64,000 bases of DNA from a bacterium (GCA_963675295.2 CAXXKJ010000002.1:352001-416000), one strand, 5' to 3'. Positions 1,079-60,667 are shown, counted from the stretch's first letter. Translations and numbers: made by a program. Notes: a model not told the origin generated them from the sequence alone.

Positions 1079-1112
1079 GTGCCCCTGATGGCTCCGCCAG
1101 CAGGGCTTATCC
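1079..1112 (+). repeat. REP-like hairpin, family A (GTGCCCCTGATGGCTCCGCCAGCAGGGCTTATCC)
   Basis: Near-identical copies at 22480, 26723, 35517, 42521, 53652, 59602 and 60634. Confidence 0.9.
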
Positions 1113-1114
1113 AT

Positions 1115-2164
1115 CTAGTCCAGTGATCCACTCTTCGCCAACCGCGCCGCATCCCGTTCCGCCTTGGCGATCGCGAAGCTGGAGATCCCCATCGCCACCA
1201 GGATCAGCGCGGCGCCGAACAGTGACCGTGCAGACCACGGATCCCCGATCAGCATCCACGCGAACAGTGACGCGAACACCGGTTCCAGCGAGAACACGAA
1301 TCCGGCGTGCGCAGCCGGAACGTCGGGTTGAAACCGCGTTTGCAGCCACACCGCGATCACCGACCCGAAAATCGCCGTATAGGCCACCCCAATCCAGCCG
1401 GTGCGTGTCATTTCGAACGGTTGTCCATGAACCAGGGTCCACACAATCGCCAGCACCGCCACAGCGCCCACCTGCGCCAGGGTCAACGCTCGCGATTCCT
1501 TGTCCGAACGCGACAGCGCTTCCAGGATCACCATCTGCAACGCGAAAACCAGTGCGCAGCCCAGCGTCAGCCAGTCACCGATGTTCATCCCGCCGGTGTC
1601 CGGATCGGCGATCAACGTAATCCCGGCGGCGGCGGGGAGCAGGGCGAACCACGCGGTTCGGGGTGTGTGGCTGGTCCGCAGCAGCAACGCCAGCGGTGGT
1701 GTCAGCACCACCAGCAGTCCGGTGAAGAACCCGGACCGTGATGCGGTCGTGTGTTCCAGCCCCAGCACCTGCAACGCGAACCCGGCGAACAGCAGCCCGC
1801 CGATCAGCGCACCGCGTACCCAGATACTGCGCAGGATACCGTTCCGCAGCTTGACCCACACCGGCGACATGCCGGCTTCGGTCATCGCGGCGTAGCTGTC
1901 ATCATCGTCACCGGCTTTGGGCCGGATGTGTCCACGAAACCGCAGCAGCAGGAACAGGTAGAGGAGGGGAAACGCCGTCCCGAAGCGGAGGGCGACAAAC
2001 TGGATCGGATCGGTGTCCACAACCGACAGCTTAGTGACCGGAAAGGTGAGCCCCCAGATCGCGGTCAGCACGATCAGCATCACGGTGGCACGAAGACGAC
2101 GGCCCCGGTGTGGATCGTGCACCGGGGCCGGAAAATCGCGCGTCTCTGAACCGGTCAGGCCCAT
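1115..2164 (-). CDS. DMT/EamA family transporter
   Basis: About 10 hydrophobic helices; IWGLTFPVTK, ALRF and LEPVFA motifs; two EamA repeats. Confidence 0.85.
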   Translation of the reverse strand: MGLTGSETRDFPAPVHDPHRGRRLRATVMLIVLTAIWGLTFPVTKLSVVDTDPIQFVALRFGTAFPLLYLFLLLRFRGHIRPKAGDDDDSYAAMTEAGMSPVWVKLRNGILRSIWVRGALIGGLLFAGFALQVLGLEHTTASRSGFFTGLLVVLTPPLALLLRTSHTPRTAWFALLPAAAGITLIADPDTGGMNIGDWLTLGCALVFALQMVILEALSRSDKESRALTLAQVGAVAVLAIVWTLVHGQPFEMTRTGWIGVAYTAIFGSVIAVWLQTRFQPDVPAAHAGFVFSLEPVFASLFAWMLIGDPWSARSLFGAALILVAMGISSFAIAKAERDAARLAKSGSLD

Positions 2165-3678
2165 CGTTGCAGCGCCTCAAGCAGCAGCCGGACCGCAACG
2201 CCGGTCCCGAGTTCCTTGTGCGGTGTGTAGCTGAACGGTCCGTCGGTCGCCGTTCCCGCGATGTCGAGGTGCGTCCACGGTGTGTCGCCCACAAACTCCT
2301 CGAGGAACTTGCCCGCGGTGATCGTGCCGGCGGGACGGCCGCCCGTATTCTTCAGGTCGGCGATCTCGCTTTTGATCTGCTGGCGGTAATCGTTGTACAT
2401 CGGCAGCCGCCAGATGCGTTCACCGGTCGCTTCACCCGCCTCGAACAGCAGGTTATACAGGTCGTCGTTGTTGCTCATCGCGCCGGTGACCCAGTGGCCG
2501 AGGCCGATAACCACCGCACCGGTCAACGTCGCCAGGTCAACCATCGCGTCCGGCTTGACCTTGTCCACGGCGTACGCCAGCGCATCCGCCAACGCCAGCC
2601 GCCCTTCCGCGTCGGTGTTGTCGATCTCGATGGTTTTCTTGTTGTACGCGGTCAGCACGTCGCCCGGATGATACGCCGCGCCGTCGGTCATATTCTCGAC
2701 CGCCGGGATGAACCCGTGCACACGGCACTTCGGCTGCAGCCGGTCGAGCGCCTTGAAAACGCCCATCACCGTCGCCGAACCACCCATGTCGACCTTCATG
2801 TCGCGCATGCCGCCAGCGGTCTTGATGTCAAGGCCGCCGGAATCGAACGTTACGCCTTTGCCGACAATCGCGAACGTTTTGGTCTTCTTCGACGGGCGCT
2901 TCGGTTCGTATGTCAGATGAATCAGCACCGGCGGGTGCGCACTGCCCTGGCCGACGGCCAGCAACGCGCCCATCTTCAACGCCTTCAGCTTCTTCTGGTC
3001 GAGGACTTCCACCTTGACCGTGCCACCGGCGAGCTCTTTCGCAACCTTGCCGTAATCTTCCGGGTACAGGTCGCCGGCCGGTGTCGTCACCAGGTCGCGC
3101 GCATAGGTCACCGCGTCAATCGTGATTGACGCATACTTCGCGGCGGCGTTCAGCACTTTCTTGTCGATGTTGCCGCCGCCGATGACGTGCAGACTGTCCA
3201 GCGTCGGGTAACGGTCAAGGTCCATCGAGCGGCGCACATACCGGTAGGTCGCCAGCGCGGTGCCTTCCAAGGCGGCAATGGTGTGCTGTTTCTGTGTATC
3301 AGCATCGAAACCGGTGACCGGCGGCAGCACAGTGATTTCGTTCAGCCGTGCATTCCGCACACGCCTGCCCGCCGTGCCAAAGCAACGCCGTACGTGTTCC
3401 GCGACGATGGTTTCCCGCTTGCCGAGGCCGACGATCATCATGAATCGCGGACCGTCCGAGGTGCCACCATACAGTTCCAGCACCTGGTTCTTCTTGCCAG
3501 AGAAATCACCGCTGGCGATCGCGCGTTCAATGCGGTTTGCGAGGGACGCGTCCAGCCGGCCGAGTCCACCCTCGGAGGGCTTTTCTCCCTCGAAAAGACC
3601 AGCGATGAATACCTGTGTTGTTACTTCCTGTGGCGAGCGATCCTCTACGTGGATAGTCACGGGAAATTCCTTCTTCAA
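2155..3678 (-). CDS. pepA: Leucyl aminopeptidase (M17)
   Basis: VGKGVTFDSGG, MKVDMGG and NTDAEGRL signature motifs. Confidence 0.95.
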   Translation of the reverse strand: MKKEFPVTIHVEDRSPQEVTTQVFIAGLFEGEKPSEGGLGRLDASLANRIERAIASGDFSGKKNQVLELYGGTSDGPRFMMIVGLGKRETIVAEHVRRCFGTAGRRVRNARLNEITVLPPVTGFDADTQKQHTIAALEGTALATYRYVRRSMDLDRYPTLDSLHVIGGGNIDKKVLNAAAKYASITIDAVTYARDLVTTPAGDLYPEDYGKVAKELAGGTVKVEVLDQKKLKALKMGALLAVGQGSAHPPVLIHLTYEPKRPSKKTKTFAIVGKGVTFDSGGLDIKTAGGMRDMKVDMGGSATVMGVFKALDRLQPKCRVHGFIPAVENMTDGAAYHPGDVLTAYNKKTIEIDNTDAEGRLALADALAYAVDKVKPDAMVDLATLTGAVVIGLGHWVTGAMSNNDDLYNLLFEAGEATGERIWRLPMYNDYRQQIKSEIADLKNTGGRPAGTITAGKFLEEFVGDTPWTHLDIAGTATDGPFSYTPHKELGTGVAVRLLLEALQRWA

Positions 3679-4037
3679 TCCTTGGCGGCAGTTTTAGGCC
3701 GGTTGTTATCGTCCAGGACCACGACAACCGGTTCGTGACCCTCAATCTCTTCAGGGAACAGGTCGCAATATGTGGCAACGATGACCTGGTCTCCGACCGA
3801 CGCAAGGTGCGCGGCGGCACCGTTCACGCCGATGATGCCCGATCCTGGTTCGCCTACGATGATGTACGTCGTAAACCGTTGACCGTTGGTGATATTGTAA
3901 ACATCAACCTGCTCGTTCGGCAACATGTCCGTAAGTTCCAGCAGATTGCGGTCTACGGTAAGGCTGCCCTTGTAGTGCAGGTCGGTTTGCGTGACACGAG
4001 CCTGGTGCAGTTTGGCTTTGAGGAAACGACGGAGCAT
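3675..4037 (-). CDS. panD: Aspartate 1-decarboxylase
   Basis: MLRRFLKAKLHQARVT...YKGS (GS self-cleavage site), NGQRFTTY, NGAAA. Start moved to the ATG at 4037. Confidence 0.95.
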   Translation of the reverse strand: MLRRFLKAKLHQARVTQTDLHYKGSLTVDRNLLELTDMLPNEQVDVYNITNGQRFTTYIIVGEPGSGIIGVNGAAAHLASVGDQVIVATYCDLFPEEIEGHEPVVVVLDDNNRPKTAAKD

Positions 4038-4185
4038 GCTGGCCTTCTCTGTAAAACGGCTAAACGAATCCAATGTAGCCGCGAATCGTCAAAGCTAGGA
4101 GTTTGGCGGGGGGTCTACAAGGGTGAAAGGAGACGGTTTCTTCGAGCTGAATTTCTTTGGATCTTTTAGTTATTTCACTAGTTGT

Positions 4186-8149: not shown

Positions 8150-8566
8150 TTGCCCCGACGAGCTTGCTCGTCGGGATGAGGCAACAGGTGATACACCCCA
8201 TCAGTCATCCTGAGCGCAGCGAAGGATCTCTCTTTTAGGAGGGGTGGTGTGGCCCGACTTGCCACGTTAAATCGTGTATCACGAGGTCACGCCCACGACA
8301 TTCATGTCGTAGCTTATCAGGGGGTAATTTGCTAGCTCTTGCCCGTGATGGTATCGACCGGTGGTAGAACGATGCCCACAGAAGCTTCGCTACCGTGGAT
8401 TGTGCGGAAGCAAATCATTCTTGCCCGTGTTGGCTTTGACAACGCGGGTAATCCGTGGCTGATTCACCCTTGGTTGTGGTTTGTTTCATGCCCCAGACAT
8501 TCATGTCTGGGCTCATCCACGCTTGGCCAGCAAGATCTTGCATTTTTTATCGCAGCCCGCAGCTGG
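8150..8566 (+). repeat. Cluster of REP-like hairpins (6 TGCCC-type units plus one GTCATCCTGAGCGCAGCGAAGGATCT element)
   Basis: Units at 8150, 8289, 8339, 8372, 8421 and 8488; GTCATCCTGAGCG element at 8204. Confidence 0.85.
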
Positions 8567-11018: not shown

Positions 11019-11093
11019 GTGCCCCGACGGCAGAAGGCTCGTCGGGATCATCGCATGATCAACATGCCCCAGACATTCATGTCTGGGATCATC
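11019..11093 (+). repeat. Two REP-like hairpins (families D and B) upstream of pyrF
   Basis: GTGCCCCGACGGCAGAAGGCTCGTCGGGATCATC and ATGCCCCAGACATTCATGTCTGGGATCATC. Confidence 0.85.
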
Positions 11094-11116
11094 GGCATCA
11101 CAACGGAACCATCCCG

Positions 11117-22433: not shown

Positions 22434-22770
22434 ATGCCCCAGACATTTATATCTGGGCTCATCCGCACCTGAATGAATTGTGCCCCTGATGGCTCCGCCA
22501 GCAGGGCTCCCACCCTCGAATCATCAGCGTCCGCAGGTTTTTTGACACGGGCACGTCCTTCAGTCTACATGCCCACGGCATTCACATCGTGGCTTGACCG
22601 TCCGCACCCAACCCGGTTGATCCACATGCCCTCGGGCTTCAGCCCGGGATTCACAGACAGTCAAGTCACCACCGCAGCCACGCCCTCGGACTTCAGTCCG
22701 GGGCCAACCGCGATACGAACCATCCAACCCGAGAGACGAGACACCAGAGACGTGAGACGAAAAAGGGACC
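22434..22770 (+). repeat. Cluster of 5 REP-like hairpins plus GAGAC-heptamer tract
   Basis: Units at 22434, 22480, 22569, 22626 and 22680; GAGAC tract at 22731-22760. Confidence 0.85.
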
Positions 22771-24970: not shown

Positions 24971-24971
24971 C

Positions 24972-26676: not shown

Positions 26677-26850
26677 GTGCCCCAGACATTCATGTCTGGG
26701 CTTATCCGCACCTGCCTGGAACGTGCCCCTGATGGCTCCGCCAGCAGGGTTTATCCACCCTCGGATCTCCCGCGTCCGCACGTTCTTTGACACGGGCACG
26801 GTCAACACGATGCCCGCGGGAGCTTCTGTATGCTACCGCGGTTGACCAAC
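26677..26850 (+). repeat. Cluster of 3 REP-like hairpins (B, A, E)
   Basis: Units at 26677, 26723 and 26810. The first ~125 bp parallels 22434-22556. Confidence 0.88.
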
Positions 26851-33130: not shown

Positions 33131-33267
33131 GTGCCCCAGACATTCATGTCTGGGATTCGTGAATGGTTCAGGAAATCATCCTGAGCGCAGCGACGTTTTT
33201 TTCTTTTCCTGTCTGTTCCTGTCTTTTGCATCTGTTGCGTCTTTTGCTTCTCTTGCTTCCGTTGCCT
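33131..33267 (+). repeat. Family-B hairpin, partial ATCCTGAGCGCAGCG element and 9-mer tract (TCTTTTGCN)
   Basis: GTGCCCCAGACATTCATGTCTGGG at 33131; TCTTTTGCA-TCTGTTGCG-TCTTTTGCT-TCTCTTGCT-TCCGTTGCC. Confidence 0.75.
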
Positions 33268-33835: not shown

Positions 33836-35512
33836 ATGCAAGTGTTCACCAAGGTACAACAGCGGCTGCATCAATTCGAACGACCGATCGTCGGGATCGC
33901 CCTCACGGTGATCGTGCTATCGCTTGCCGGCCACATCCTCACCGCGCCGCTCGACCATGACGAACACATGTACCTCACCGCCGCCTCGCTGCTGGACGAT
34001 CACAGCATCTACAGCGACTTCAGCTACTTCCAGACACCGTTGATGCCGTATGTCTACAACGCCGCTCTCGCACTCCCCGGCGGCAACTCCATCCTGTTGA
34101 CCGCCAGACTGGTCAAGGTCGCCCTCGCCGCGCTGCTGGTGCTGGCGGTGTACGGCCTGTTGAAACGCCTCACCGCCAGCCGCTGGATCGCGCTGGGGTT
34201 GCTGCTGTTTTTCGTGCACAACGACGTCCTGCGTTTCACCCTCGCTCTCGCACGCAACTATGATCTGCCGCTGTTGCTGACCGTTCTCGCGGTTTGGTTA
34301 CTGGCAACGCCCCCGGCACGGCTCACTCGGTTGCATGCTTTCGCGCCGGTGGTGCTGGCGGGCATGTTGGCCACCCTGTGCGTAGGCTTCAAGCTGACCT
34401 ACGCCGTGGTGCCGCTTGCGTTGGGGGCGGCGTTGCTGGTTTCACATCGGCCACGGATCACCACCCTGAAACAGGTCGGCGGGTTCATCGCCGGAGGCCT
34501 GGTCGGATTGCTCCCGTTGCTGGCGATCTTTCTCGCCACACCTCGCGACCTGTTCCTGTTCAACAACCTCGGCTACCACGACCTCAACACGCTCTGGCGT
34601 CTCGAGCACGAACCCCTCGCCACCATGACCCTCGGCGGCAAACTGACCGCGCTGGCCAGCGAGCTGTCCGACAACAACAGCCTCGCGTTGCTGCTGGTCA
34701 TCTTGACGGCTGGCATACTGCTCAGCCTTCGCGTCAGACAGGATGCCCGCGGGGCAGAAGGTGCTGCTGCGGCTCATCCGTCTGCCGAACGTACCGACAA
34801 TCTTGCCCGTGTTGGCTCAGCCAACGCGGTTCACCCGTCCGCCGAATCAACCGACAATCTTGCCCGCGCTGGCTCGGTCAACGCGACTCATCCACCGTTG
34901 ATCATCCCGTTGGTCCTCGCCGGCCTGACGATGGTCCTGGTCCCGACACCTTCCCTGACCAGCTATAACTCCCTGTTGATCGTCTCGCTGGTCCTCGCCG
35001 CTGCGATGCTGTTCAGCCGCCTCAACGGGCGCTCCCGTCGTTACACCGGCACCGCGATCCTCCTCATCGCCGCCGTGATGATCGTCTCCAACCTTCCCCG
35101 CGATTGGCGCAACCTCGCGGCAGTTGCTCAACCAGACCGTTGGACCGGCGTTCAGCTCCACCGTCAGGCACGGGCGTTACACGACCAAATCCCACCCGGC
35201 GAACGGGACAAACCGGTCTTTACCTTATCGCCGTTGTACGCCCTTGAGGCCGGGTTGCCGGTCTATCCCGAGCTGTCGGCGGGAGTCTTCGGCTATCGCG
35301 TCGCGGAGTATCTGTCTGAGCAGGATGCCGAAGGCTTTCGCCTCGTATCTCCGCTCACAGTTGACAGTTTCCTGAATAGGACTCCGCCATCCTTGCTGCT
35401 GACTGGTTTCGAGGGAGAACTAGAGAGGGGAATTGACGAGTGGGCGACATCGCACGGCTACGTGGAGAACCGCACCTTGATCCCCGCCGCAACGATCTAC
35501 CTCGCACCGTAG
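33836..35512 (+). CDS. Polytopic membrane protein, GT-C (ArnT/PMT-like) glycosyltransferase candidate
   Basis: DHDE after the first TM helix, YSDF...TPL, many TM helices. Carries an in-frame repeat-derived insert. Confidence 0.65.
   Translation: MQVFTKVQQRLHQFERPIVGIALTVIVLSLAGHILTAPLDHDEHMYLTAASLLDDHSIYSDFSYFQTPLMPYVYNAALALPGGNSILLTARLVKVALAALLVLAVYGLLKRLTASRWIALGLLLFFVHNDVLRFTLALARNYDLPLLLTVLAVWLLATPPARLTRLHAFAPVVLAGMLATLCVGFKLTYAVVPLALGAALLVSHRPRITTLKQVGGFIAGGLVGLLPLLAIFLATPRDLFLFNNLGYHDLNTLWRLEHEPLATMTLGGKLTALASELSDNNSLALLLVILTAGILLSLRVRQDARGAEGAAAAHPSAERTDNLARVGSANAVHPSAESTDNLARAGSVNATHPPLIIPLVLAGLTMVLVPTPSLTSYNSLLIVSLVLAAAMLFSRLNGRSRRYTGTAILLIAAVMIVSNLPRDWRNLAAVAQPDRWTGVQLHRQARALHDQIPPGERDKPVFTLSPLYALEAGLPVYPELSAGVFGYRVAEYLSEQDAEGFRLVSPLTVDSFLNRTPPSLLLTGFEGELERGIDEWATSHGYVENRTLIPAATIYLAP
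34743..34893 (+). repeat. Three REP-like units inside the coding frame
   Basis: ATGCCCGCGG...CTGCGGCTCATCC plus two TTGCCCG(T/C)G(T/C)TGGCTC...AACGCG units 57 bp apart. Confidence 0.85.
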
Positions 35513-35516: not shown

Positions 35517-35775
35517 GTGCCCCTGATGGCTCCGCCAGCAGGGCTTATCCGCCGGTCATCGAATCGATTCTTGCCCGTGTTGGCTCTGACAACGCGGTTT
35601 ATCCGTCTGCTGAGTACACAACGGTAAACCATGCCCGCGACATTCATGTCTGGATTGGTAGGGTGGCCCGGAGCTTTAGACTCGGGTCTCACATGAAATA
35701 ATAAGAAACCCGGGTTTGAAAACCCGGGCCTCCCAAGTTCTTGTCCGTGTTGGCTTTGCCAACGCGTGTTTTCAT
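35517..35775 (+). repeat. Cluster of 4 REP-like hairpins
   Basis: Units at 35517 (A), 35571 (G), 35631 (B/C hybrid) and 35741 (G). Confidence 0.85.
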
Positions 35776-38942: not shown

Positions 38943-38988
38943 AAAAATGCCCCTGTGAACCGGCGTCAGCCGAATCGCAGGGGTCATT
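38943..38988. terminator. Hairpin between convergent genes
   Basis: A5, then CCCCTGTGA...CGGC-GTCA-GCCG...TCGCAGGGG. Confidence 0.55.
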
Positions 38989-39037
38989 CGAGAGATCAAT
39001 ATCAACCAATATGTCACCGCCCCGGTCCTCACCTCCC

Positions 39038-42420: not shown

Positions 42421-42605
42421 ATGCCCCGACCAGCTTGCTGGTCGGGCATATCCGCAGGCTTCAATCATGTGGTGTGTCATCCCCCACGATATTCATGTCT
42501 GGGATGAACGCCGGTAGCATGTGCCCCTGATGGCTCCGCCAGCAGGGCTGATCCGCAGGATGGAATCTTGCCCGTGTTGGCTCCGACAACGCGGGTCAAC
42601 CGCAC
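42421..42605 (+). repeat. Cluster of 4 REP-like hairpins
   Basis: Units at 42421 (D), ~42479 (B/C), 42521 (A) and 42568 (G). Confidence 0.85.
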
Positions 42606-45095: not shown

Positions 45096-45098
45096 ATC

Positions 45099-46052: not shown

Positions 46053-46161
46053 CGGTATCCTCTTTCCACTTCAATGAAGTCATCGCCCCAATTCAACGAG
46101 ATCGGCACCTCAATTCAATGAGGTTAATGCCACTGTTAAACGAGGCTGGCACTCCAATGGT

Positions 46162-46450
46162 GTCATCCTGAACGAAGTGAAGGATCTACGTTCCCGTTGA
46201 TCCATCACGTGATATCGAAATCATGCCCCAGACATTCATGTCTGGGCTCATCGTCGGTCGCCATGCCCACGACATTTATGTCGTGGCTGATCCGTCATCT
46301 GGTTTTAAAGTCATGCCCTCGGGCTTCAGCCCGGGATCATCAGCCAACAGACATTCCTCAGGATCCACGCCCTCGGACTTCAGTCCGGGATTACCAACCC
46401 CGGAAATCCATCACAATCTTGCTTTTCTTTCCCACAGCCCACAGCCCGTC
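46162..46450 (+). repeat. Cluster: GTCATCCTGAACGAAGTGAAGGATCT element plus 4 REP-like hairpins
   Basis: Units at 46223 (B), 46263 (C), 46313 and 46367 (F); CACAGCC heptamers at 46432. Confidence 0.85.
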
Positions 46451-46453
46451 GTT

Positions 46454-49697: not shown

Positions 49698-50162
49698 CTA
49701 TTTCGGCAGTTTGAACCCGTTGGCGGCGAATTGCTTCAATTTGTCAGCGATCGCGGCATCCTGCAACGCAAGGATCCGCGCGGCGAGCACCCCGGCGTTG
49801 GTCGCGCCGGCCTTGCCGACGGCGACGGTTGCCACAGGCACACCGCCCGGCATCTGCACCGTGGACAACAGCGAATCGAGGCCGTCCATCAGCCCGCCCG
49901 GCAACGGAACCCCGATCACCGGCAGGTTGGTCTTCGCGGCGACGGTTCCGGCGAGGTGGTTGGCCATGCCCGCAGCGGCGATCACCGCCTGGAAGCCGTT
50001 CGCTTCGAGGTTCGCACAAAACTCGCTCACCTCGGCGGCGTTGCGGTGCGCGCTCAGCACCTTCACCTCGTGCTCGATTCCAAACCAGTCCAGTATCGGC
50101 AACGCGCGTTCGACAATGTCCCGGTCGTTCGCGCTGCCCATCATAATGGCAACTTTCGGCAT
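49698..50162 (-). CDS. purE: N5-CAIR mutase
   Basis: [31 protein letters not shown]. Confidence 0.96.
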
Positions 50163-50296
50163 GAGTCTTTTCTATCCGTTGGTAACGTTTCCGCGCGGCT
50201 CGTTTCCCCACCCCGAGCCGAACTCAAAGGGTAAGATATACCCCGCTTGCTGGCAAGCGGGGACAAGCGATCAACTCTCGGCGGCCTGACGGCGGC

Positions 50297-51328: not shown

Positions 51329-51376
51329 GAAACCCCCACAATCAGCGTAAGATCATTGGTCTCTGTAGTAATAAAC

Positions 51377-51403
51377 AAAAAACGCCCCCGCGATGCGGGG
51401 GCG
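51377..51403 (-). terminator. Intrinsic terminator
   Basis: CGCCCCCGC-ATC-GCGGGGGCG followed by T6 on the minus strand. Confidence 0.85.
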
Positions 51404-51424
51404 GAAATCGTCACTCGGAGTTTC

Positions 51425-52243
51425 TTACGGCGCATACCAACCGGTGGCGGCATCGAAGTAGGCCCGGATGCCGAGTTCCGCAAACGCGCCGGTGAAGTCA
51501 ACCGCGATCTTGCGTGTCCGGTTGTTGTTCGCGTCCCAGACGTACGGTTCGATCGGATAGTTGCCTTCTTCGTCGAGGCTTCCGGTCAGATCTTCGTACT
51601 CGAGGTTCGGTACGTTCGCCATGCGATAGCCGATCGCGCCCGTGATACCGAACATCTCGGTCAGCATGAATTCAGCGCCGAGGGATGCGCGCAGGCCGAG
51701 GCCCGTGCCGGTGGCGTCGTAGATTGCCGGGTCGAACTCGTTCTGCGATGTGATACGGTCAATCTTGGCGTTGATCAGGCTGACACCACCGCCGACGAAC
51801 AAGTGAAAGGCGTCCCCGAACGGAATCAGGTAATGACCGGCCACATAGAACTCACCACCGGAAGCAACGTGCTCGTTCGTCGCGGTCGAGCCGTCTTCGA
51901 GGTTGGTGAAGCTGCCTTCAAACTTGTCCTGGCCGAGGTAGTTGTACCCGATGTGCCAGCGGAAGTTTTCGTGGCTGCGATACAGCAGCGCAAGGCCGCC
52001 GCCGATGCCAAGCTCGGCTTCGTTGTAGTCGTTTCGCTGGATGTTGTCGATCGGCGTGAGGAAGTAGTTATTCACATCGTCCATCGCAAACATGCTACCA
52101 CTTCCGGTAATCTGGATACCGAACTTGTGGGGCAGTTCAACGCGTTCGGTCTGGAAAATCGAAATGTCGCTTCCTGCGGATGCCAGGCCTGCAAAAATGA
52201 GCACACCGACGATCATCCCCGCCAGCAGTCCATGACCCTTCAT
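51425..52243 (-). CDS. Outer-membrane beta-barrel protein
   Basis: Signal peptide; alternating amphipathic strands; ELGIRAYF near the C-terminus. Confidence 0.7.
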   Translation of the reverse strand: MKGHGLLAGMIVGVLIFAGLASAGSDISIFQTERVELPHKFGIQITGSGSMFAMDDVNNYFLTPIDNIQRNDYNEAELGIGGGLALLYRSHENFRWHIGYNYLGQDKFEGSFTNLEDGSTATNEHVASGGEFYVAGHYLIPFGDAFHLFVGGGVSLINAKIDRITSQNEFDPAIYDATGTGLGLRASLGAEFMLTEMFGITGAIGYRMANVPNLEYEDLTGSLDEEGNYPIEPYVWDANNNRTRKIAVDFTGAFAELGIRAYFDAATGWYAP

Positions 52244-52348
52244 ACTGGATCGCCTCCCAATCATCTGCGGCGCCATCGTAGGTAGAATGATGTGTCCTCC
52301 CCGGCCCCGCCGGCGCCTCTCCGGGGCATGTCTGGAAACTCGCTCAAG

Positions 52349-53407
52349 TTAGGTTTCGGTTGCGGACTTTGCAACCAGTTGAGTGACCTTACGAACACCG
52401 CGTGCATACGCGAAGAGAATCGATCCAGGGTACACAACATGACCCAATTGGCGCCAGTGAACTTTCCGTAATTCTTGAATATGACGGCGTTTTGATTGGT
52501 TGCGCTTCCATGCCCGGGCGAAGTCTCTCCACGCTGCCATCACTGCGGTGAATCTGCCGGGGTGCCCCCGGAGAGCCTCCACCACTCCGATTCCGTGGTC
52601 GAAGACCAGCCTCGCGAGCAACAATCCGGGCAGGTCGAACTTGTCCGCGTTCTTCAAAATCATGAACAGGCTGTTGCGGTGGTTGAGGTACATTTTGTTC
52701 CAGGATTCGTACGCCAGCGTCGACCCGCCGAGGTGATACACCGTCCCGTGCGGAGCAGACGCCACCTTCCATCCGCGCAGCCACGCTCGCCACGAGAGGT
52801 CGATCTCCTCCTGGTGCGCGAAGAAGTCCTCGTCCAGCAGCCCGATGTCCTTGAGCGTCGATCGCCGCCACAGGCACGCCGTCCCGCTCGCCCAGAAGAT
52901 CTCGCGCGGCTCGTTGTACTGTCCGGTGTCCTCCTCCATGTCGCCGCCGATCCGGCCGTAGGCGAACGGGTATCCGAAACGGTCGATCAACCCGCCCGCG
53001 CCGCCGGCATAGTCAAACATGCCATGGTTGTGATGCGAGAGGATTTTCGGCTGTACCGCGGCGATCTGCGGTGAACTCATCGCCACGTCCAGCATCGCCT
53101 CGACCACGCCCGGCACCAGCCGCACATCATCGTTCAGCAGCCACACCCAGTCGCCGTTGGAGGCTTCGATCCCACGGTTGCAGCCGCCGGCATAGCCATG
53201 ATTCTTCGTCAGCCGCAGCACATGAATCCACGGGTGCGCCTTTTCCGCATCCCGGACCGAACCGTCGGTGGACGCATTATCCACAACCAGCACCTCGAGC
53301 GCGACCCCGCGTTGCAGCAAACGTTTCCGTTCGTCAGCGAGGTCGGTCAACGTGTTCAGCAGGATTTCGTGGCCCTGCAGGTGCGGTATGATGACGGTGA
53401 TCAGCAT
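52349..53407 (-). CDS. GT2 glycosyltransferase
   Basis: VVDNASTDGS, NHGYAGGCN, LLNDD, FAHQEEIDL. Confidence 0.9.
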   Translation of the reverse strand: MLITVIIPHLQGHEILLNTLTDLADERKRLLQRGVALEVLVVDNASTDGSVRDAEKAHPWIHVLRLTKNHGYAGGCNRGIEASNGDWVWLLNDDVRLVPGVVEAMLDVAMSSPQIAAVQPKILSHHNHGMFDYAGGAGGLIDRFGYPFAYGRIGGDMEEDTGQYNEPREIFWASGTACLWRRSTLKDIGLLDEDFFAHQEEIDLSWRAWLRGWKVASAPHGTVYHLGGSTLAYESWNKMYLNHRNSLFMILKNADKFDLPGLLLARLVFDHGIGVVEALRGHPGRFTAVMAAWRDFARAWKRNQSKRRHIQELRKVHWRQLGHVVYPGSILFAYARGVRKVTQLVAKSATET

Positions 53408-53539
53408 GGTTTGTCGTGCACGTGGTACGCTGGGTTTTGCCTGTGATTGACGTTTGGTTCTACTCTGATTGCCGTTGAGTTCTACTGCAATTGACGCCGG
53501 GCTCTGCTACTGGCTAACGTAAGGAAAGGTCACAAGCAC

Positions 53540-53806
53540 GTGCCCGTGCTGGCTCTGACGACGCGGCTCATTCACATGTTCCTATCCCGATGCCCGCGGG
53601 AGCTTGTCTACTGCGGATCATCCGCCACTCTCGTGTTCGGGTCAAGGACATGTGCCCCTGATGGCTCGGCCAGCAGGGCTTATCTGTCGGTCAATCATCG
53701 TACTGGTTTCGTGCCCCAGACATTCATGTCTGGGCACACCCGACCGTTCAATCCCTGATGCCCGCGGGAGGTTTCCTACCGCGGATCATCCATTAGCCCA
53801 CAGCCT
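53540..53806 (+). repeat. Array of 5 REP-like hairpins (G, E, A, B, E)
   Basis: Units at 53540, 53590, 53652, 53711 and 53758. Confidence 0.9.
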
Positions 53807-53808
53807 GC

Positions 53809-56800
53809 CTAGTGATCCCGATCCGGTGCCGCGCTGATGTCGACCCCTTCCGGTAACGTCCCGCCCCACTGTTGCAGCAGACGTCCGGCTTCGCCGTCAT
53901 GCGGATTCCGTTCCAGCCACCGTTCGAGGGTCCGCTGCACCTTCTGCGAATCGTCCATGCTCTGGTATGCCTGCAGCAGGCTGCCGAACACTTCCCCGTT
54001 ATCCGGTTGTTCGTTGGCGAGCTCTTCGTACAGCGTCGCAGCCTTCTGGTATTCATCCAGCGTGAAGTAGAACGTGCCCAGGTCGAGCTTATCCTGTAGT
54101 GTCAGGTTGTTCCGCGATTCCATCTCGGTCAGCACTTCAGTGAGCCGGCCCATCATGCCCAGCCGTTCATAGATCGCCGCCGCGCCGAACAGCACGTCGA
54201 TGCTGTTGTCATCTTCCAGCACCTGTTGCACCAACTGATCCGTACGTGTCGAGTCGCCGGAGTATTCGCCGATGTAGTACGCGATCTGCAGCTGGCCGGA
54301 GATGTCGCCGCTGAGCTGTTCGATCGCATGCTCGAAATACTTCAGCCCGGCTGTGCTGTCGCCGAGTTCGTAGTAGATCCTCCCGATCTGCAGCGACACG
54401 TCCCGGTTGTTCTGCGGCACCGCATCCAGCGTGATGTACTCGTCCATCTTGCGCAACGTGAACAGTGCCTTTTCCGCCGGAGTCAGCTCGTCAAATCGTT
54501 GTTCCCACTGTTCGTCCGGCACGCCGCTCGGTGTCCGCACCCCGGACCGCTCCATCTCCCGGTAGTAGCTATACACCAGTTGCAGGAACCCGCTGCGGTA
54601 ATTCTGCAGCAGCTTGATCACGTTGTCGAAGTAATACACATCCGGGTTGTCGAGGTTGCGATAGTTGTCCTTATACGTTTCGAACAGGTTCTTCCGCAAC
54701 GCCGGTTCGTTGATCTCCGGCACTTCCTCGCTGTGCAGCCGGAATAGCAGACCTTCCATCGTCATGTAATCATCCAGCCCGACGAGGTTGCTGCCGGAAA
54801 CGGTCACCGCGAAGTAGATCGGCCGTTGCCACCGGTTCTGCTCGATGATGTGCAGAATCATGATGTCCTGCACCCGCAGGAAGTTCGGCTCACCCGGCTG
54901 TTCGCCTGGCATGCCGGTGGGGATGTGCATCGTCGCCGGCACTCGCCAGGTCATCGTGTCACCGCGTGCGCCGCGCACGCTCCACGTCTGCGCATCCGGC
55001 GGCCAGTACCGCGCCAGCAGGGCTTCGTCCGACAAGCCGGTCAATCGTTCGTCGATCATCCGGTCAGACAGCGAGATGGGCACTTTCGGCTCTTCATCCC
55101 GCAGCTGCTTGATGTACCAGTCGGTGTTCAACAGGCTGAGGTTGACCACACGGACATCCGTGCGAATTCCTTCCACCACCTGCAGGTACCACAACGGGAA
55201 GGTGTCGTTGTCACCGTTGGTGAAGATGATCGCGTCCTGCTCAGCGGTTTCCAGCATGTTGTGGCTGTAGTCCCAGGCGACAAAATTCCCCGCACGGCTG
55301 TGCGATTCATAATTCGCCAGCACCATGTTGATCGGCACCAGCACCGTGCATGCGATCACTGACCCGTACGCGAACACTTTCTTCAGGCTGGTGTTTTCCT
55401 TGTTCCGGATCATGTCCTCGAGGAACTCATACAGCGCCGCGACCCCCATCCCGATCCACAGGGAAAAGGCGAAGAATGAGCCGACGTAGGCGTAATCTCG
55501 CTCACGTGGCTGCGGGTTGTCCTGGTTCAGGTAGAACACAATCGCGATGCCGGTCATCAGGAACAGCAGCCCGACACTGAACGCCCGCTTCGGATCTCGC
55601 CAGAAATGCCAGATCATCCCCAGCAGCCCGAACAGGAACGGGAACACCAGCGGTTTTCCTTCCTCGCTGATGAAGTATTGCCACGACAAATACCGGATGT
55701 ACATCTGGTTGATCTGGTACTCCCACAACGGGGCGTTACGTTCGAGGATATGCAGCCGCAGCACATTGCCGCCGCCGAGTGGAATCAGCGCCGCGCCGTC
55801 GTCCTGCAACCGGCGGATCGTGTTCGCGGAATAGTTTTCCAGCGCCACCGGCCCGACCGCGCCGTACTGTTCACGGTTGAGGTACTTGATCAGCCGTTCC
55901 ACCGTGTCCGGCTGGTTTTCGTTGATCACCGGGTTGAGGTTGGAACGGACATAGATAATCGCGTAGGTCGAATAGCCAATCAACACCAGCACCAGGCTGG
56001 CGAGGATGATCGCCATCAGGCTGCGGCGTTTCCGGATCGCCCAGACGGTTCCGCCGATGATCACCAGCAGCACCAGCGCCTTCCAGATCACGCCGGCTTC
56101 CAGCAGCTTCGGAACACCACCGACCACGCCTGGATACACCACCAGGATCGCCGCCATCGAAATGGCCATCGCGATGATGAAGCCCTTCCATGTGAACTTG
56201 TATTTCTGGAAATACAGCAGCATGATGATCGGGCTCAACGCCAGCACGTTCAGCAGGTGAATCCCGATCGCGACGCCGACGAAATAGGAGATCAGCAACA
56301 AATATTTCGTTGCCATCGGGGTGTCATGCTGGTCCATCCACCGTACCGCGAGCCAGAACACCAGCGCGGTGAAAAACATCGAGATCGCGTACACCTCCGC
56401 CTCGACAGCATTAAACCAGAAGCTGTGGCTGAAGGCGAATGCGAGTGCGCCGGTAACACCGGAGCCGTAAAGCACCCACTTGTCGGCAGTGCTGGTTTCC
56501 GGCCCACGCCAGCGCCGAACCAGCCGTACCACGATCAGGTAGGTCAGCAGCACGGTCACCGCGCTGAGGATCACCGACAGCGCGTTGACACGCATGCCGA
56601 TGTCCGGCAGCGGCATGAACAGGCTCATCATCCGGCCGAGGATCAGATAAAAAGGTGCGCCGGGCGGGTGGGGGACGCCCATGGAATAGGAACAGGCGAT
56701 GAACTCACCACAGTCCCAGAACGATGTGGTCGGCGCCATGGTGCTGAAGTACAGAATCAGGGCCAGCAGTAGCACGGCACCGGCGATAATCCGATGGACG

Positions 56801-56847
56801 CGCGGATTGACAGATGTGCCCGAAAGGGCCGGGCGCGGGTCGCTCAC
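53809..56847 (-). CDS. DUF2723 (TMEM260-like) membrane glycosyltransferase with C-terminal TPRs
   Basis: SFWDCGEF, HPPGAP, AVEAEVY, YLNREQYG, PQPRERDY, GDNDTFPLWY; TPR-like helical tail. Confidence 0.88.
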   Translation of the reverse strand: MSDPRPALSGTSVNPRVHRIIAGAVLLLALILYFSTMAPTTSFWDCGEFIACSYSMGVPHPPGAPFYLILGRMMSLFMPLPDIGMRVNALSVILSAVTVLLTYLIVVRLVRRWRGPETSTADKWVLYGSGVTGALAFAFSHSFWFNAVEAEVYAISMFFTALVFWLAVRWMDQHDTPMATKYLLLISYFVGVAIGIHLLNVLALSPIIMLLYFQKYKFTWKGFIIAMAISMAAILVVYPGVVGGVPKLLEAGVIWKALVLLVIIGGTVWAIRKRRSLMAIILASLVLVLIGYSTYAIIYVRSNLNPVINENQPDTVERLIKYLNREQYGAVGPVALENYSANTIRRLQDDGAALIPLGGGNVLRLHILERNAPLWEYQINQMYIRYLSWQYFISEEGKPLVFPFLFGLLGMIWHFWRDPKRAFSVGLLFLMTGIAIVFYLNQDNPQPRERDYAYVGSFFAFSLWIGMGVAALYEFLEDMIRNKENTSLKKVFAYGSVIACTVLVPINMVLANYESHSRAGNFVAWDYSHNMLETAEQDAIIFTNGDNDTFPLWYLQVVEGIRTDVRVVNLSLLNTDWYIKQLRDEEPKVPISLSDRMIDERLTGLSDEALLARYWPPDAQTWSVRGARGDTMTWRVPATMHIPTGMPGEQPGEPNFLRVQDIMILHIIEQNRWQRPIYFAVTVSGSNLVGLDDYMTMEGLLFRLHSEEVPEINEPALRKNLFETYKDNYRNLDNPDVYYFDNVIKLLQNYRSGFLQLVYSYYREMERSGVRTPSGVPDEQWEQRFDELTPAEKALFTLRKMDEYITLDAVPQNNRDVSLQIGRIYYELGDSTAGLKYFEHAIEQLSGDISGQLQIAYYIGEYSGDSTRTDQLVQQVLEDDNSIDVLFGAAAIYERLGMMGRLTEVLTEMESRNNLTLQDKLDLGTFYFTLDEYQKAATLYEELANEQPDNGEVFGSLLQAYQSMDDSQKVQRTLERWLERNPHDGEAGRLLQQWGGTLPEGVDISAAPDRDH

Positions 56848-57032
56848 AAGTGTTTCCTCGGCAAAATGGACAAGACTGGTAATATCACGCCCTTGGTTGG
56901 CGGGAGCAAGGCTCTCCGGCATGTCGCACTCGCGGTGCTTGCATAGTCAACATGCCGTTGAACACGCCCCTGTGACCCGCCGGGCTGTTTCGGCGGTTCG
57001 CAGGGCGACTCCGCAAGTACTCGACGGAGCGT

Positions 57033-57265
57033 ATGCCCCGACGGCAGAAGGGCTCGTCGGGCTGATCCACCCGTTCAATCTCTGAGGTGGCTCGTCCGCC
57101 GGTACCCACCCCGATGCCCGCGGGAGCTTCTGTATGCTACCGCGGCTCATCCGTCAAACGATGCAGTGAGGTCAATCTGCAGGGCCAGGCGCGATTGCAT
57201 GGACCCGAGAGACGAAAGACATTTGCATGGACCCGAGAGACGAAAGCTAAGAGACAAGAGACGGA
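57033..57265 (+). repeat. Two REP-like hairpins plus 2 x TTGCATGGACCCGAGAGACGAAAG direct repeat
   Basis: Units at 57033 (D) and 57114 (E); duplicated 24-mer at ~57195 and ~57223. Confidence 0.8.
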
Positions 57266-57480
57266 TTCCCCTGGTGCCCGTGATTGTCCGCCGGTCTGTT
57301 TCGGCGGCTATCGCGGGTCAACCGTTCACGCCATGCGTCCCCTCAACCACCGACCACCGACCACAGATAACCGCCTTCACGCCACCGCCCCTCCTCGCCG
57401 GGCGTTGTACGCCCGCTGAGCTCCGACTACTTTAAAAGGAGATACGCGGAAGTATACGGACGGTTCGCACGGAGTCTCTG

Positions 57481-58974
57481 GTGAGAGGTCGAGTACTGAT
57501 CGAGCTGATGCTCGCGTTGTTGGTTGGAGTCGGATCCGCCCTCGCGGATGCGGACGGTCCTCCGGACGGATTCGCTGGCAACCCGCCGAACATGACCACC
57601 TGCATCGCCTGCCACGACACCTATCCGCTCAACAGCGGGATCGGCGGCGTGCTGCCCGGCGGGATCTCCACCCAGTACATCCCCAGCCACTTGTACAACC
57701 TCAACGTGCTCGTCGGCTATGTCGGCCGCGAACACTGGGGCTACCAGATGACGATCCTCAACGCCGACGGCGAATCGGCGGGGATCTTTCTGCACGCCGA
57801 CAGCTTGAGCACCATTTCCGACCATCCCGTCCCTGAGCAGGATTTCATCGGCCAGAGCGAGCTCGGTGTCTTACCGGGTCAGGAATACGCACGTTGGTAT
57901 TTCGACTGGTATTCCCCGCCGGAGGATTCCGGTCCGCTGACGTTGTACGTCGTCGGTGTGGCCGCGGACGGTGACGGCACTCCGGCCAACGACTACGTCT
58001 ACGCCTATTCCGCGGCCTTGCAGGAAATCAGCGGCGGATTTTCCGGCCCGGCAGCCTACACCGACACCACCCGGCACGATTACCGCCTTGTCCCGGTCAA
58101 CACCACCCGCAGCTGGACCGAACGGCTGTACAGCGTGGGCACGGACAACCTTGTCATCAACGGCTGGGACTGGTTCAACGACCAGTATTTTACGGTGCTC
58201 GAGCCCGCCGGCCCGATCACCCTCGTACCCGGCGACTGGACCGATGTCACCATCGAGTTCGCGCCCGTGCTGACCGGATCGTGGTCCGACAGCCTGTGGT
58301 TTGATTTCGCGGGTAACGTTGACTTCGGCGCGTTCGCCGTTCAGGGACGCGGCACCTTCCCGTTGCCACCAGAGGAATTTCACCTCGTGTCGCCGGAAGA
58401 TGGGGAGCACGTCGCCGGCGATTCCCTGCGTTTCCACTGGACCCCGACCACCAACCCGGACTCGTCGAACACCGTCGTCGATTTCGCCGTCGAAATCGAC
58501 ACCGAATCCGATTTCAGCAGCAGCATGTTCTACGAAGCCGGGCACGACACCACGCTAGCCCTGCCGATGGTTGAATTTCAGTTAAATGATCTCTATTTCT
58601 GGCGGGTGCTGGCACGGGATACGAACACCGGGGGCCGGTATTCGGACGAGGAGTGGGTGTTTATCCCGAGTCTCTCGGCGGTCATCGAAACGGGGCCATC
58701 CGCGCGGACGGACAGCCCCATTCGTGTGAACACCTGGCCGAATCCATCAAACGACCGGGCGGTGGTTACTTTCGAGCTCCCCCGTGCCATGCCGGTGGAG
58801 GTGGCGGTGTATGATATCGCTGGCCGCCTCGTATCGGTTCTCCACTCGGGTCCGATGGCCGCGGGACGGCAAACCATTGTCTGGACGGGAACTCATCCGA
58901 GTGGCCTCTACTTGCTCCGTCTGACTGCTCCAGGTATTTCGCCCGTGCACGCGAAAATGATCGTGCTGAAGTAG
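57481..58974 (+). CDS. Secreted Reeler-like (choice-of-anchor V-like) protein with Ig/FN3-like domains and T9SS-like CTD
   Basis: Signal peptide; TCIACH; FDWYSPP; CTD WPNPSN...SGLYLLRL...KMIVLK. Confidence 0.8.
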   Translation: MRGRVLIELMLALLVGVGSALADADGPPDGFAGNPPNMTTCIACHDTYPLNSGIGGVLPGGISTQYIPSHLYNLNVLVGYVGREHWGYQMTILNADGESAGIFLHADSLSTISDHPVPEQDFIGQSELGVLPGQEYARWYFDWYSPPEDSGPLTLYVVGVAADGDGTPANDYVYAYSAALQEISGGFSGPAAYTDTTRHDYRLVPVNTTRSWTERLYSVGTDNLVINGWDWFNDQYFTVLEPAGPITLVPGDWTDVTIEFAPVLTGSWSDSLWFDFAGNVDFGAFAVQGRGTFPLPPEEFHLVSPEDGEHVAGDSLRFHWTPTTNPDSSNTVVDFAVEIDTESDFSSSMFYEAGHDTTLALPMVEFQLNDLYFWRVLARDTNTGGRYSDEEWVFIPSLSAVIETGPSARTDSPIRVNTWPNPSNDRAVVTFELPRAMPVEVAVYDIAGRLVSVLHSGPMAAGRQTIVWTGTHPSGLYLLRLTAPGISPVHAKMIVLK

Positions 58975-59500
58975 AGCGTTCGCCGAGCTGGTTGAAGTAA
59001 TCGCGGCCGTTTACCCAGCCAGACGGTGGGAAATCCTTGTCGTAGTCGAAGCTGCGTCCACGCGCGAATGGCGCACGCGGCACAAGCCGTTCGCCCTGCA
59101 TCGGCACCAGGTTGCCGTCTTCGTCCAGCACGAACGTCTTCCCGTTGCTCGGATAGGTGTACGTGCGCGACGTTCCGTCGATATACTGCACCGTGAAGTC
59201 GCCCTCACCGTCCTCGGCGTCCATCACCTGAATCTCGCTCTCGCCGATGGTGGTGGTCACGCTCGTACCATTCCCCGAGACCGCAACCGCGCCGGACGTT
59301 CCCCCCGAACCGGTGGAATAACTGTAGCTGTAGCTTCCGTCCGCTTCGGTGGCCGCCTCAGACGTGGACGAGCCGCTGACGGACTGCGACCTCGACGAGC
59401 TGCTGACGGCGGTGCTGGAGCTCGAGGACGTGCCCGCGCAGGCGACGAACAGGACCGCCACGAACACCGTCACCACTGGTAGCCAGACTGCTTTTCTCAT
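58766..59500 (-). CDS. Ser-rich lipoprotein (3' end uncertain, overlaps the convergent gene)
   Basis: Lipobox FVAC followed by a Ser/Thr-rich linker. Confidence 0.6.
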   Translation of the reverse strand: MRKAVWLPVVTVFVAVLFVACAGTSSSSSTAVSSSSRSQSVSGSSTSEAATEADGSYSYSYSTGSGGTSGAVAVSGNGTSVTTTIGESEIQVMDAEDGEGDFTVQYIDGTSRTYTYPSNGKTFVLDEDGNLVPMQGERLVPRAPFARGRSFDYDKDFPPSGWVNGRDYFNQLGERSTSARSFSRARAKYLEQSDGASRGHSDEFPSRQWFAVPRPSDPSGEPIRGGQRYHTPPPPPAWHGGARK

Positions 59501-59601
59501 CCTGCCCTCCGGACTTCCTGACCCGTTACACAGGCTACGACAACCGCCACACGGATTTGTTACAGCCCGTCACGTCTGATTCTCGAGAGCCCGGTGCCCT
59601 G

Positions 59602-59772
59602 GTGCCCCTGATGGCTCCGCCAGCAGGGATTATTCGCAGATGGTGTATTCGGGTCCGTGTGGCCCGGCTTGGTCTGTGTGGCCAATTGGTCGTGTGTCCA
59701 AGCGGTCGAGTGCCCCGACGGCAGAAGAGCTCGTCGGGATTATCCACCCTTGGATCTCAGCCCGCAGCCCGT
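59602..59772 (+). repeat. Two REP-like hairpins (A, D) plus CAGCCCG heptamers
   Basis: Units at 59602 and 59710. Confidence 0.85.
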
Positions 59773-59773
59773 T

Positions 59774-60364
59774 TTACAGCGCCGCCCTAAGGTGACTCAT
59801 GGTCAGATCGTCCCCGCCGGCGTCATCGAACCACCGCACAACACGCCAGCCACCGTCCTGCTCCCGTTTCAGGGTCAGGTCGGCGACACCTGCGTACAAA
59901 CGTGGCAGGGTCTCGTTGGCTGGTGCGATCTCGAGAGTGTAGCTCTCACGGAACACGGCGGAGTCGGCGAACGACACTTCCTCGATCGGGGTGAAGGTCA
60001 GCGTGGCCGTCGAATCCGGCGGCAGCAGGGTGGAGGAAAGCAGCGACCGGATGAACACATCCTCGCGGGTGTAGGTCCAGTCGTCGAAATAAGCGGGGTC
60101 TTCGGAGAATGCGGACGGCGTCGCGGCAAACTCGAACGTCTCGGAGATCGCCGTCAGGTACAGGTTCGGATCGTGCAACGTGATCGCGGATTCCAGCTGG
60201 ATCAATGCTTCGGTCGGGCTGAGCGCGAGGTTGTCGGACGCCTGCGAGCCTGTCGGCGACTCCGGATCCCGCGTTTCGAATAACCCACATCCGCTCACCA
60301 CCACCAGCAGCAGCATGGTTCCCGCCAGCCGCACGACCCGAGCGGCCCGTGCCCGTGGAATCAT
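59774..60364 (-). CDS. Hypothetical lipoprotein
   Basis: Lipobox VSGC-GLFETRDPE; C-terminal W.VVRWFD. Confidence 0.7.
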   Translation of the reverse strand: MIPRARAARVVRLAGTMLLLVVVSGCGLFETRDPESPTGSQASDNLALSPTEALIQLESAITLHDPNLYLTAISETFEFAATPSAFSEDPAYFDDWTYTREDVFIRSLLSSTLLPPDSTATLTFTPIEEVSFADSAVFRESYTLEIAPANETLPRLYAGVADLTLKREQDGGWRVVRWFDDAGGDDLTMSHLRAAL

Positions 60365-60520
60365 GCGTATGCCACACCGCGTGCGGTCAGCCTGCTTTCC
60401 ACCATGCCCGGCTGGAAAGTGTGTTGTCCATGTTCTCTTCATGACATCAAGATACACAACAAAACCCGCGCACCTCGAAATCCTGTTCTCCTTCCCCCAG
60501 AATCCGTGTGACAACCAATC

Positions 60521-60667
60521 GTGCCCCAGACATTCATGTCTGGGCTCTTCCACCCGTTCAATACCCTATGCCCGCTGGAGCTTCCGTATGCTACCGCGGC
60601 TCATCCACCATCGAACAGAATGGTGACAATCACGTGCCCCTGATGGCTCCGCCAGCAGGGCTCATCT
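60521..60667 (+). repeat. Array of 3 REP-like hairpins (B, E, A)
   Basis: Units at 60521, 60568 and 60634. Confidence 0.9.

Follow-up and report, generated by a model that had tools for sequence, protein, structure and literature searches.

Why should a single stretch of bacterial chromosome carry dozens of short hairpins that share their borders, differ in their stems and all lie on one strand? We examined this question for a 64,000-nucleotide stretch, G000:C2:352001-416000 (G000 is the source genome, C1 and C2 its contigs), hereafter called the window and numbered from its first letter. An earlier reading made from the sequence alone (the sequence-only reading) had seen in it a lineage-specific, combinatorial system resembling repetitive extragenic palindromes (REPs). 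We find that the elements are almost certainly REPs of the kind associated with REP-associated tyrosine transposases (RAYTs; HUH/Y1 type), and that their orientation and density are centered on copies of a small open reading frame (ORF) located at GC-skew jumps and preceded by a putative SOS box. The overall explanation that we consider rather probable is one of nine REP families on which resident RAYTs act across family boundaries, mostly on single strands near SOS-boxed genes.

Nine hairpin families share their borders

A scan with nine stem patterns, which gave 1 hit per 1 Mb of block-shuffled control DNA, detected 47 REP-like elements at about 17 loci of the window (B 9, A 8, E 6, G 6, F 6, D 5, C 4, I 3), every one of them on the + strand. 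The sequence-only reading had counted 45-50 elements in about 15 clusters, and the orders that it quoted (GEABE, BEA, BAE, BCFF) were all returned by the scan. Its seven stems were likewise recovered, but family I, with three members in the window, had been missed, and genome-wide there are nine families with 597 elements in total (H 143, B 87, A 76, D 63, F 51, G 50, I 49, E 42, C 36). By rough ORF calls, 485 elements lie outside and 112 inside ORFs.

We assessed the borders on 401 stems picked by stem pattern alone, with the borders unused. The 5' foot TGC is present at 347 of these stems against a background of 1.8%. The tail NTNATCC occurs exactly at 126 (background, 0.14%) and with at most one mismatch at 235 (background, 1.7%), and it is enriched in all nine families, most weakly in H (25/105) and F (15/43). 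Lack of enrichment across core types had been named beforehand as grounds for abandoning the idea of shared borders; the enrichment is there, genome-wide. The borders are nonetheless less constant than had been claimed: the foot stands far above chance, whereas the exact ATCC tail is a minority form in the window (15/47). The foot is NTGC, not the GT[AG]G foot of the GTAG-tagged REP superfamily, and it belongs to head hexamers that are specific to families, such as TCTTGC in G (31/33) and GTNTGC in D (45/51). Stems are better conserved than linkers, which are mostly unique and mostly 15-50 nt long rather than the 10-30 nt estimated earlier. We also searched 41 genomes, including four of the genus (G000, G001, G002 and G003), for the border pattern. 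It is expanded in the four genus genomes (181, 337, 63 and 316 hits) and in one further member of the family (89 hits), with 3-49 hits in each of the other 36 genomes, so the description as lineage-specific holds.

Six stems flank distinct RAYT genes

G000 contains 12 Y1_Tnp matches and one further RAYT. RAYT1 (C1:220322-220900) has inverted copies of A on both sides, and RAYT2 (C2:1305246-1305797) is flanked by inverted H. Both are single-copy genes that retain HVH and the tyrosine motif (YxHxNP). The NF047646 profile (cut-off, 80) scores 96.5 bits at C2:1305282 and 79 bits, just under the cut-off, at C1:220382, and the best PDB match of the RAYT profile is 4ER8, the E. coli TnpA-REP. The window itself holds no cognate enzyme, as had been observed, and the proposed search for flanked Y1/RAYT genes was productive elsewhere: among 51 loci of the 41 genomes, stem-RAYT pairs in congeners comprise B, I and an A variant in G003, E in G002, and A and F in G001. 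Six of the nine stems (A, B, E, F, H and I) therefore flank a RAYT of their own in this or a sister species, and these paralogues are about 40% identical to each other. A search for partner enzymes gave two GIY-YIG matches only.

Eight genus RAYTs (of A, B, E, F, H and I) and three others form one group (SH-aLRT, 85) in a quick tree of 76 proteins, for which about two thirds of the Planctomycetota-set rows were left out and rows with stops or fewer than 120 residues were dropped, except L181. G-like and D-like stems flank RAYTs outside the genus RAYT group. More distant homologues, mostly from Planctomycetota, have GTGC or GTGG feet. The shared border is best read, from these sequence comparisons, as inheritance from one RAYT clade and not as the product of a single enzyme.

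We considered whether the residue after FW (equivalent to E. coli Q95) sets the fourth base of the foot. L or M occurs with C at 13/13 labelled loci, but Q occurs with C at 32 and with G at 30, and we rejected this idea. Separately, G000 has eight identical copies of an IS200 insertion sequence (L001-L008) whose subterminal hairpins have feet ATGC and ATAC resembling the REP head. The REPs are not IS200/IS605 ends or miniature inverted-repeat transposable elements, as the resident IS200 end hairpins differ and merely resemble D.

Element strand converges on six skew-jump sites

GC skew at fourfold sites on C2 forms a sawtooth, with sharp minus-to-plus jumps near 424, 1378, 2262, 3473, 3856 and 4392 kb followed by slow decay, and the G-rich strands point away from each site. 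All six sites rank in the top 0.2-4.3% of jumps; oriC, beside dnaA at 276 kb, has little skew jump (0.07). The REP strand flips at these same six sites. Between 10 and 100 kb from them, 87 of 96 clusters (180 of 206 elements) run 5'-to-3' toward the site, while beyond 200 kb the proportion is 58/96 (58:38). For the four sites with intact ORF copies alone, the excess of those pointing toward the site beats all 3000 random placements (p = 1/3001). Density follows the same geography, at 18-29 elements per 100 kb within 100 kb of the sites versus 8 beyond 200 kb, and orientation is organized in domains: pairs 5-20 kb apart share a strand in 73% of cases, falling to 47-51% beyond 100 kb. The window ends 7 kb left of the strongest site, a double one, which explains both its density of elements and their uniform strand.

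Orientation is unrelated to the flanking genes (137 sense, 128 antisense), and we therefore rejected transcription as its cause. We also rejected the tail as a DnaA box, since oriC beside dnaA has standard boxes and no cluster of boxes marks the skew jumps. No replication gene was found among 60 ORFs at six of the jumps, and the only common DNA motifs at the jumps are the ORF described below and mobile repeats.

Two side observations concern the same coordinates. PD-(D/E)XK nucleases are encoded by five similar ORFs, each standing alone and about 300 residues long, at G000:C2:1518271, 4188446, 1694830, 3603332 and 649116; one of the five sits at a weak skew jump near 1520 kb. Another Y1 gene, L009 (G000:C2:4385264-4388605), has long repeats of its own, of which 7/8 groups on C2 are within 10 kb of skew-jump sites, some of them inside the linkers of the SOS-boxed ORFs.

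An ORF family with a predicted SOS box marks the sites

Five intact copies of one ORF are found at four of the jumps, and a remnant at the jump at 1378 kb; at the 4392-kb jump, a copy is present in G001 but not in G000. The copies in G000 (L333-L337, including the remnant) are as follows.

G000:C2:423134-423358, minus strand: ORF copy
G000:C2:426157-426384, plus strand: ORF copy
G000:C2:2255250-2255477, plus strand: ORF copy
G000:C2:3476292-3476519, minus strand: ORF copy
G000:C2:3858194-3858421, plus strand: ORF copy
near G000:C2:1378000: ORF remnant

A genome-wide profile search of G000 found no further copy. The sequence TGAACA-n2-YGTTY precedes the recA operon and occurs at six promoters of the ORF or its remnant; each of these promoters is strong and sigma-70-like, and the box overlaps it. 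We take this sequence to be a putative LexA (SOS) box, so named for its position before recA. The 76-codon core of the ORF is under purifying selection (for example, 35 synonymous versus 10 nonsynonymous codons of 76). It is basic and rich in proline and glycine, is preceded by a hydrophobic start and a linker of in-frame repeats, and has no nearby stop after it in the G000 copies and most relatives. The ORF is present in 7 of the 41 genomes, all of one family. Its core gave no Pfam family over the cut-off and no Atlas hit; relatives numbered eight among longer proteins and three credible ones of five among representatives. The genome also encodes an AddAB-like nuclease pair. Beside two of the SOS-boxed ORFs, small gene pairs at G000:C2:424800-425400 and 2257900-2258600 have, judged by eye, the look of toxin-antitoxin modules.

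G002 has no ORF at 424, 2262, 3476 or 3858 kb, and there is no comparable jump at any of these four. Its sequence runs colinear with that of G000 through the 424-, 3476- and 3858-kb sites, in each case on one contig, and is anchored at 2262 kb. G001 is colinear with G000 across 3858 kb and has an ORF copy that maps to the 4392-kb jump, a site without one in G000. In G003, 15/15 REPs face that genome's own ORF copy, of which one side is visible; G000 has no ORF copy at the corresponding position and no REPs in the orthologous 25-kb bin. We consider it likely that the ORF loci are causally linked to the polarity.

Families mix freely and arrays turn over

We defined neighbors as elements within 80 nt of each other (n = 253). 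The sequence-only reading described head-to-tail arrays, which is accurate for the 160 neighbor pairs on the same strand (114 of them of mixed families); the other 93 are inverted, with the feet facing outward in 73 and inward in 20. The window itself has two decayed H elements in inverted position. Hybrids make up 61 of the 73 inverted dimers with feet outside, compared with 63.2 +/- 2.8 under random labels. Spacing within these dimers is far from uniform. A 20-nt spacer, consisting of two facing tails, separates 31 of the 73, and 23 of those 31 include A, which contributes 12.7% of elements; a 5-nt spacer separates 8 of the 73, and 7 of those 8 include H. The trend is the same in G001 on small numbers (5/9 in the 20-nt class and 4/5 in the 5-nt class). 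The preferred spacings of hybrid dimers thus fall on A and H, exactly the two stems with resident RAYTs.

Comparison with G001, whose genes are about 92% identical to those of G000 and of which about 1.1 of 4.5 Mb was examined, reveals extensive turnover. Orthologous gaps contain wholly different arrays, for example BCFF versus EACEG plus two inverted F. Unrelated stems are swapped between fixed flanks, and in one case (D/A in G001) a stem is replaced by another while the flanks on either side are retained. Among 76 homologous linker pairs, which are not independent, 63 keep both neighbors, 10 have a changed upstream stem and 3 a changed downstream stem, the last being B/C swaps. Other junctions lie directly after the GC of one head and before the hexamer of another family, with an overlap of only the 2-nt GC. 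Of 155 exact tails, 92 carry GC or GA at positions +8/+9, as in the guide rule of Corneloup (G|C or G|A), yet the observed module ends are at the stem foot or after the head GC and not at these positions. Contigs from four runs over window positions 42000-61500 contained no clean empty site, and their joints were mostly cross-matches between repeats. On this analysis, RAYT-driven exchange, which has an in vitro precedent in E. coli, and slippage may fit the array turnover alike. Free mixing of families, stem swaps and arrays that differ between species bear out the term combinatorial.

A model and its alternatives

We propose that a RAYT lineage with an NNNTGC head and a NTNATCCG tail would have radiated into paralogues, each amplifying its own stem, and that most paralogues would later have been lost from any one genome, leaving orphan stems. 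Resident RAYTs would recognize these orphans through the common foot and would cut and rejoin single-stranded DNA at any family's border, yielding hybrid dimers at fixed spacing (20 nt for A, 5 nt for H) and co-oriented mixed arrays, to which slippage between like stems would add tandem copies. We consider such cross-family handling by resident RAYTs somewhat more probable than not. Units would insert next to one another and exchange places, chiefly on the single strands predicted near genes with the putative SOS box. There, upon DNA damage, the ORF would act in cis to bring about a break or a priming event. In the version that we prefer, a break would be followed by 5'-to-3' resection, leaving 3' tails that point at the site, which is the strand that REPs occupy; outward repair synthesis after resection would then produce an origin-like skew with G-rich strands pointing away. 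We put forward with some reserve the broader idea that lineage-restricted, SOS-controlled ORF copies are cis-acting inducible sites of breaks or replication starts that shape a sawtooth skew stronger than that of oriC, and that nine mutually compatible REP families record the resulting single-stranded DNA strand by strand, for about 100 kb on each side. The break-and-resection version is still more tentative.

Several observations weigh against this model. It was the skew and REP pattern, which the sites are meant to explain, that first drew attention to them, and the 4392-kb site was added from G001. The weak skew jump near 1520 kb has no ORF copy. On G001:C7, skew and polarity are kept where the ORF core was not detected; on G003:C6, there is polarity but no negative skew left of the ORF copy; and G002's own copy has only a weak jump. 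REPs occupy the C-rich strand; were the sites origins, this would run contrary to the IS200 rule. The predicted model of the ORF product has a predicted template modeling score (pTM) of 0.49 and no Foldseek match, with no known relative or fold. As for the repeats, C, D and G lack an exact cognate RAYT among the 51 loci of 41 genomes, and none of their RAYTs turned up in the best 19 of 80 metagenomic loci; the RAYT grouping comes from the quick tree, where its clade carries no star. Pairs on the same strand show less mixing than chance would give (114/160 versus 138.5 +/- 4.4), because of F-F and H-H tandems. Comparison of filled and empty sites, as suggested in the sequence-only reading, gave wholesale differences between arrays but only 9 clean indels in 269 syntenic gaps; these indels end either at the foot of the stem or immediately past the head GC, which slippage on short homologies would explain no less well than RAYT cuts, and tandem duplications mostly overlap by a whole stem, as slippage predicts.

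For the ORF step alone, the strongest competitor is that the SOS-boxed loci are inducible secondary origins, primed by a transcript or a cis-acting peptide with no break involved. Damage-inducible stable DNA replication at oriM is a known case of SOS-linked initiation away from oriC. The sawtooth with its sharp jumps, slow decay and outward G-rich strands suits origins as well as it suits breaks, and the strong, boxed sigma-70-like promoters also agree with origins. However, an extra step is needed for the REP strand, because IS200 elements orient with the fork: REPs would come to lie on the leading-strand template via excision from the exposed lagging template or via insertion using the nascent lagging strand. 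Loss alone is a poor fit, as REP density rises near the sites and the oriC jump is small, and there was no replication protein among 60 neighboring ORFs and no common origin-like motif beyond the ORF and mobile repeats. We regard this alternative as unlikely.

A slightly smaller chance attaches to passive arrays, in which each RAYT paralogue spread its own stem formerly and mixing now results from host slippage or recombination at the shared short borders in tolerant intergenic gaps. Whole-stem homology in most tandem duplications, the GG(G) or GC microhomology at clean module ends and the enrichment of elements between convergent genes (161/485, versus 353/2109 gaps) all agree with such a history. 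It leaves unexplained, however, why fixed-distance hybrid dimers favor exactly the two stems with resident RAYTs, why junctions with a mere 2-nt GC overlap lead into a family's head hexamer, and why strand domains extend over 100 kb.

The remaining possibilities fare much worse. That one enzyme reads the border plus any hairpin and made all the stems, as the sequence-only reading ventured, would accommodate borders common to nine families and the D/A swap with both flanks kept, but is not supported, because six of the nine stems flank distinct RAYT paralogues; we consider it very improbable. It is equally hard to credit that the skew jumps and strand flips stem from rearrangement or mis-assembly at the ORF loci: these loci are paralogous and repeat-rich, but the skew decays with distance instead of forming blocks, and the single contigs of G002 (424, 3476 and 3858 kb) and the G001 sequence (3858 kb) are colinear there. 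Least probable of all is the earlier suggestion that the units are processed small RNAs or RNA regulators, with which the better conservation of stems agrees but not the lack of Rfam matches (none in the window at the gathering score), the orientation that tracks chromosomal position and not flanking transcription, or the failure of arrays to be conserved between sister species.

Relation to known REP systems

Like marginal members of subclass 2.2 of the REPtrons (Quentin et al. 2018, PMC6006769), each resident RAYT here is a single-copy Y1 HUH gene with inverted flanking REPs, a tetranucleotide foot and its own REP family. Of the hallmarks of a REPtron, those that can be read from sequence are present: a Y1 gene with HUH and Tyr motifs, inverted flanking repeats with the foot outward, and many mostly extragenic hairpins. 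The differences are that one genome holds nine families, seven of them with no resident RAYT, that all nine share a 3' tail and intermix, and that their polarity is tied to SOS-boxed loci. Table S1 of that paper already contains GTGC feet (PbraA01 and acidobacterial rows); one locus in our set, L096, carries the same REP as PbraA01 in row 45. A link to subclass 2.2 (marginal, with GTGG/GTGC arcs) is tentative and indirect, through GTGC-foot REPs shared with Table S1 entries and through Planctomycetota homologues.

Strains of E. coli differ in the linkers and copy number of their bacterial interspersed mosaic elements (BIMEs), which are mosaic arrays (Ton-Hoang et al. 2012, PMC3333891; Corneloup et al. 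2021, PMC8266576). The enzyme TnpA-REP cuts and recombines REP DNA in single-stranded form and, in vitro, is able to put several REPs together (PMC3333891; PMC8266576). Mosaic, variable arrays are common to BIMEs and the present REPs. The E. coli arrays, however, combine three subfamilies of one GTAG family in inverted pairs, whereas here unrelated stems, belonging to different paralogues, are mostly co-oriented; with 160/253 neighbors on the same strand, these arrays lack the alternation of REP and inverted REP with set linkers that defines a BIME. REPINs of P. fluorescens SBW25 (Bertels and Rainey 2011, PMC3337134) likewise are inverted doublets with feet outside and preferred spacer lengths, as are the dimers here at 20 nt (31/73) and 5 nt (8/73). 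The halves of a REPIN belong to the same group and SBW25 has no hybrids (PMC3337134), whereas here hybrids are as frequent as random pairing predicts; in S. maltophilia they amount to about 10% (Di Nocera 2013, PMC3733652). IS200/IS605 elements show an orientation bias, being oriented with the fork (PMC3971601). That bias and ours have in common single-strand elements oriented by a directional DNA process, but ours is found at six gene-marked loci and not at oriC, has the opposite sign and is accompanied by a lasting skew jump.

The repeat part of this system is a variant within REP-RAYT systems, and its GTGC foot is not new. For the polarity around SOS-boxed ORFs we found no literature report, with subscription journals mostly outside our coverage. 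Two intact RAYTs and seven orphan families with shared borders offer a panel for studying cross-recognition and cut-site choice at a non-GTAG foot, and the REPs serve as a record of a directional process acting on DNA at sites that are marked by genes and are not oriC. Should the sites prove to be inducible origins or programmed breaks, this chromosome would be a rare bacterial example in which several initiation sites have left their mark, and a candidate gene is already available.

Elements and neighboring features of the window

The elements detected in the window are listed by position, with the G001 array at the same site where it was compared.

658..1112, + strand: solo C (658-677, decayed) and solo A (stem 1083-1105, head GTGC, tail CTTATCC)
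8150..8518, + strand: array D, C, E, G, B
11019..11094, + strand: array D, B
22434..22702, + strand: array B, A, (inverted decayed H), C, F, F
22527..22555, - strand: decayed inverted H within the 66-nt A-C linker, 20 nt past A, a hybrid A/H dimer with the commonest spacer length in the genome
24794..24870, + strand: F-F tandem pair with a 35-nt linker; the same form flanks the F-type RAYT of G001
26677..26848, + strand: array B, A, (inverted decayed H), E; the B-A-E span is 26681-26841
26770..26799, - strand: decayed inverted H within the 64-nt A-E linker, 20 nt past A
33131..33161, + strand: solo B
34743..34893, + strand: E-like, G and G-like elements within an open frame (33482-35512)
35517..35767, + strand: array A, G, B and a decayed G
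38947..38989, + strand: solo I; G001 has C, A, I
42421..42601, + strand: array D, A, G; G001 has D, G, C
46223..46396, + strand: array B, C, F, F (46227-46389); G001 has E, A, C, E, G and two inverted F
53540..53791, + strand: array G, E, A, B, E (53544-53784); G001 has C, A, G, A, G and two inverted F
56964..57323, + strand: array I, D, E and a further I; G001 has B, B, G, C
59602..59745, + strand: A and D
60521..60667, + strand: array B, E, A (60525-60660); the double ORF locus with the putative SOS box, G000:C2:423000-426500, lies outside the window, some 10 kb to the right

In the array at 53540..53791, the linker before A is common to G001 but is preceded by E here and by C or G there. 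The open frame at 33482-35512, which houses three REP-type elements, has 676 codons and no Pfam match.

Other repeats adjoin the arrays. A second palindromic family (TCATCCTGA...GAAGGATC), with 39 copies on C2, lies beside them at window positions 8205-8236, 33176-33207 and 46163-46194, and short arrays of the 7-base unit GAGACGA lie beside REP clusters at 22727-22759, 39034-39080 and 57231-57263. At 818-1007 there is a pair of 89-nt direct repeats, 88% alike and 101 nt apart. Finally, a lone gene of the Abi_2 family (PF07751) is located at 37941-38933 amid housekeeping genes.

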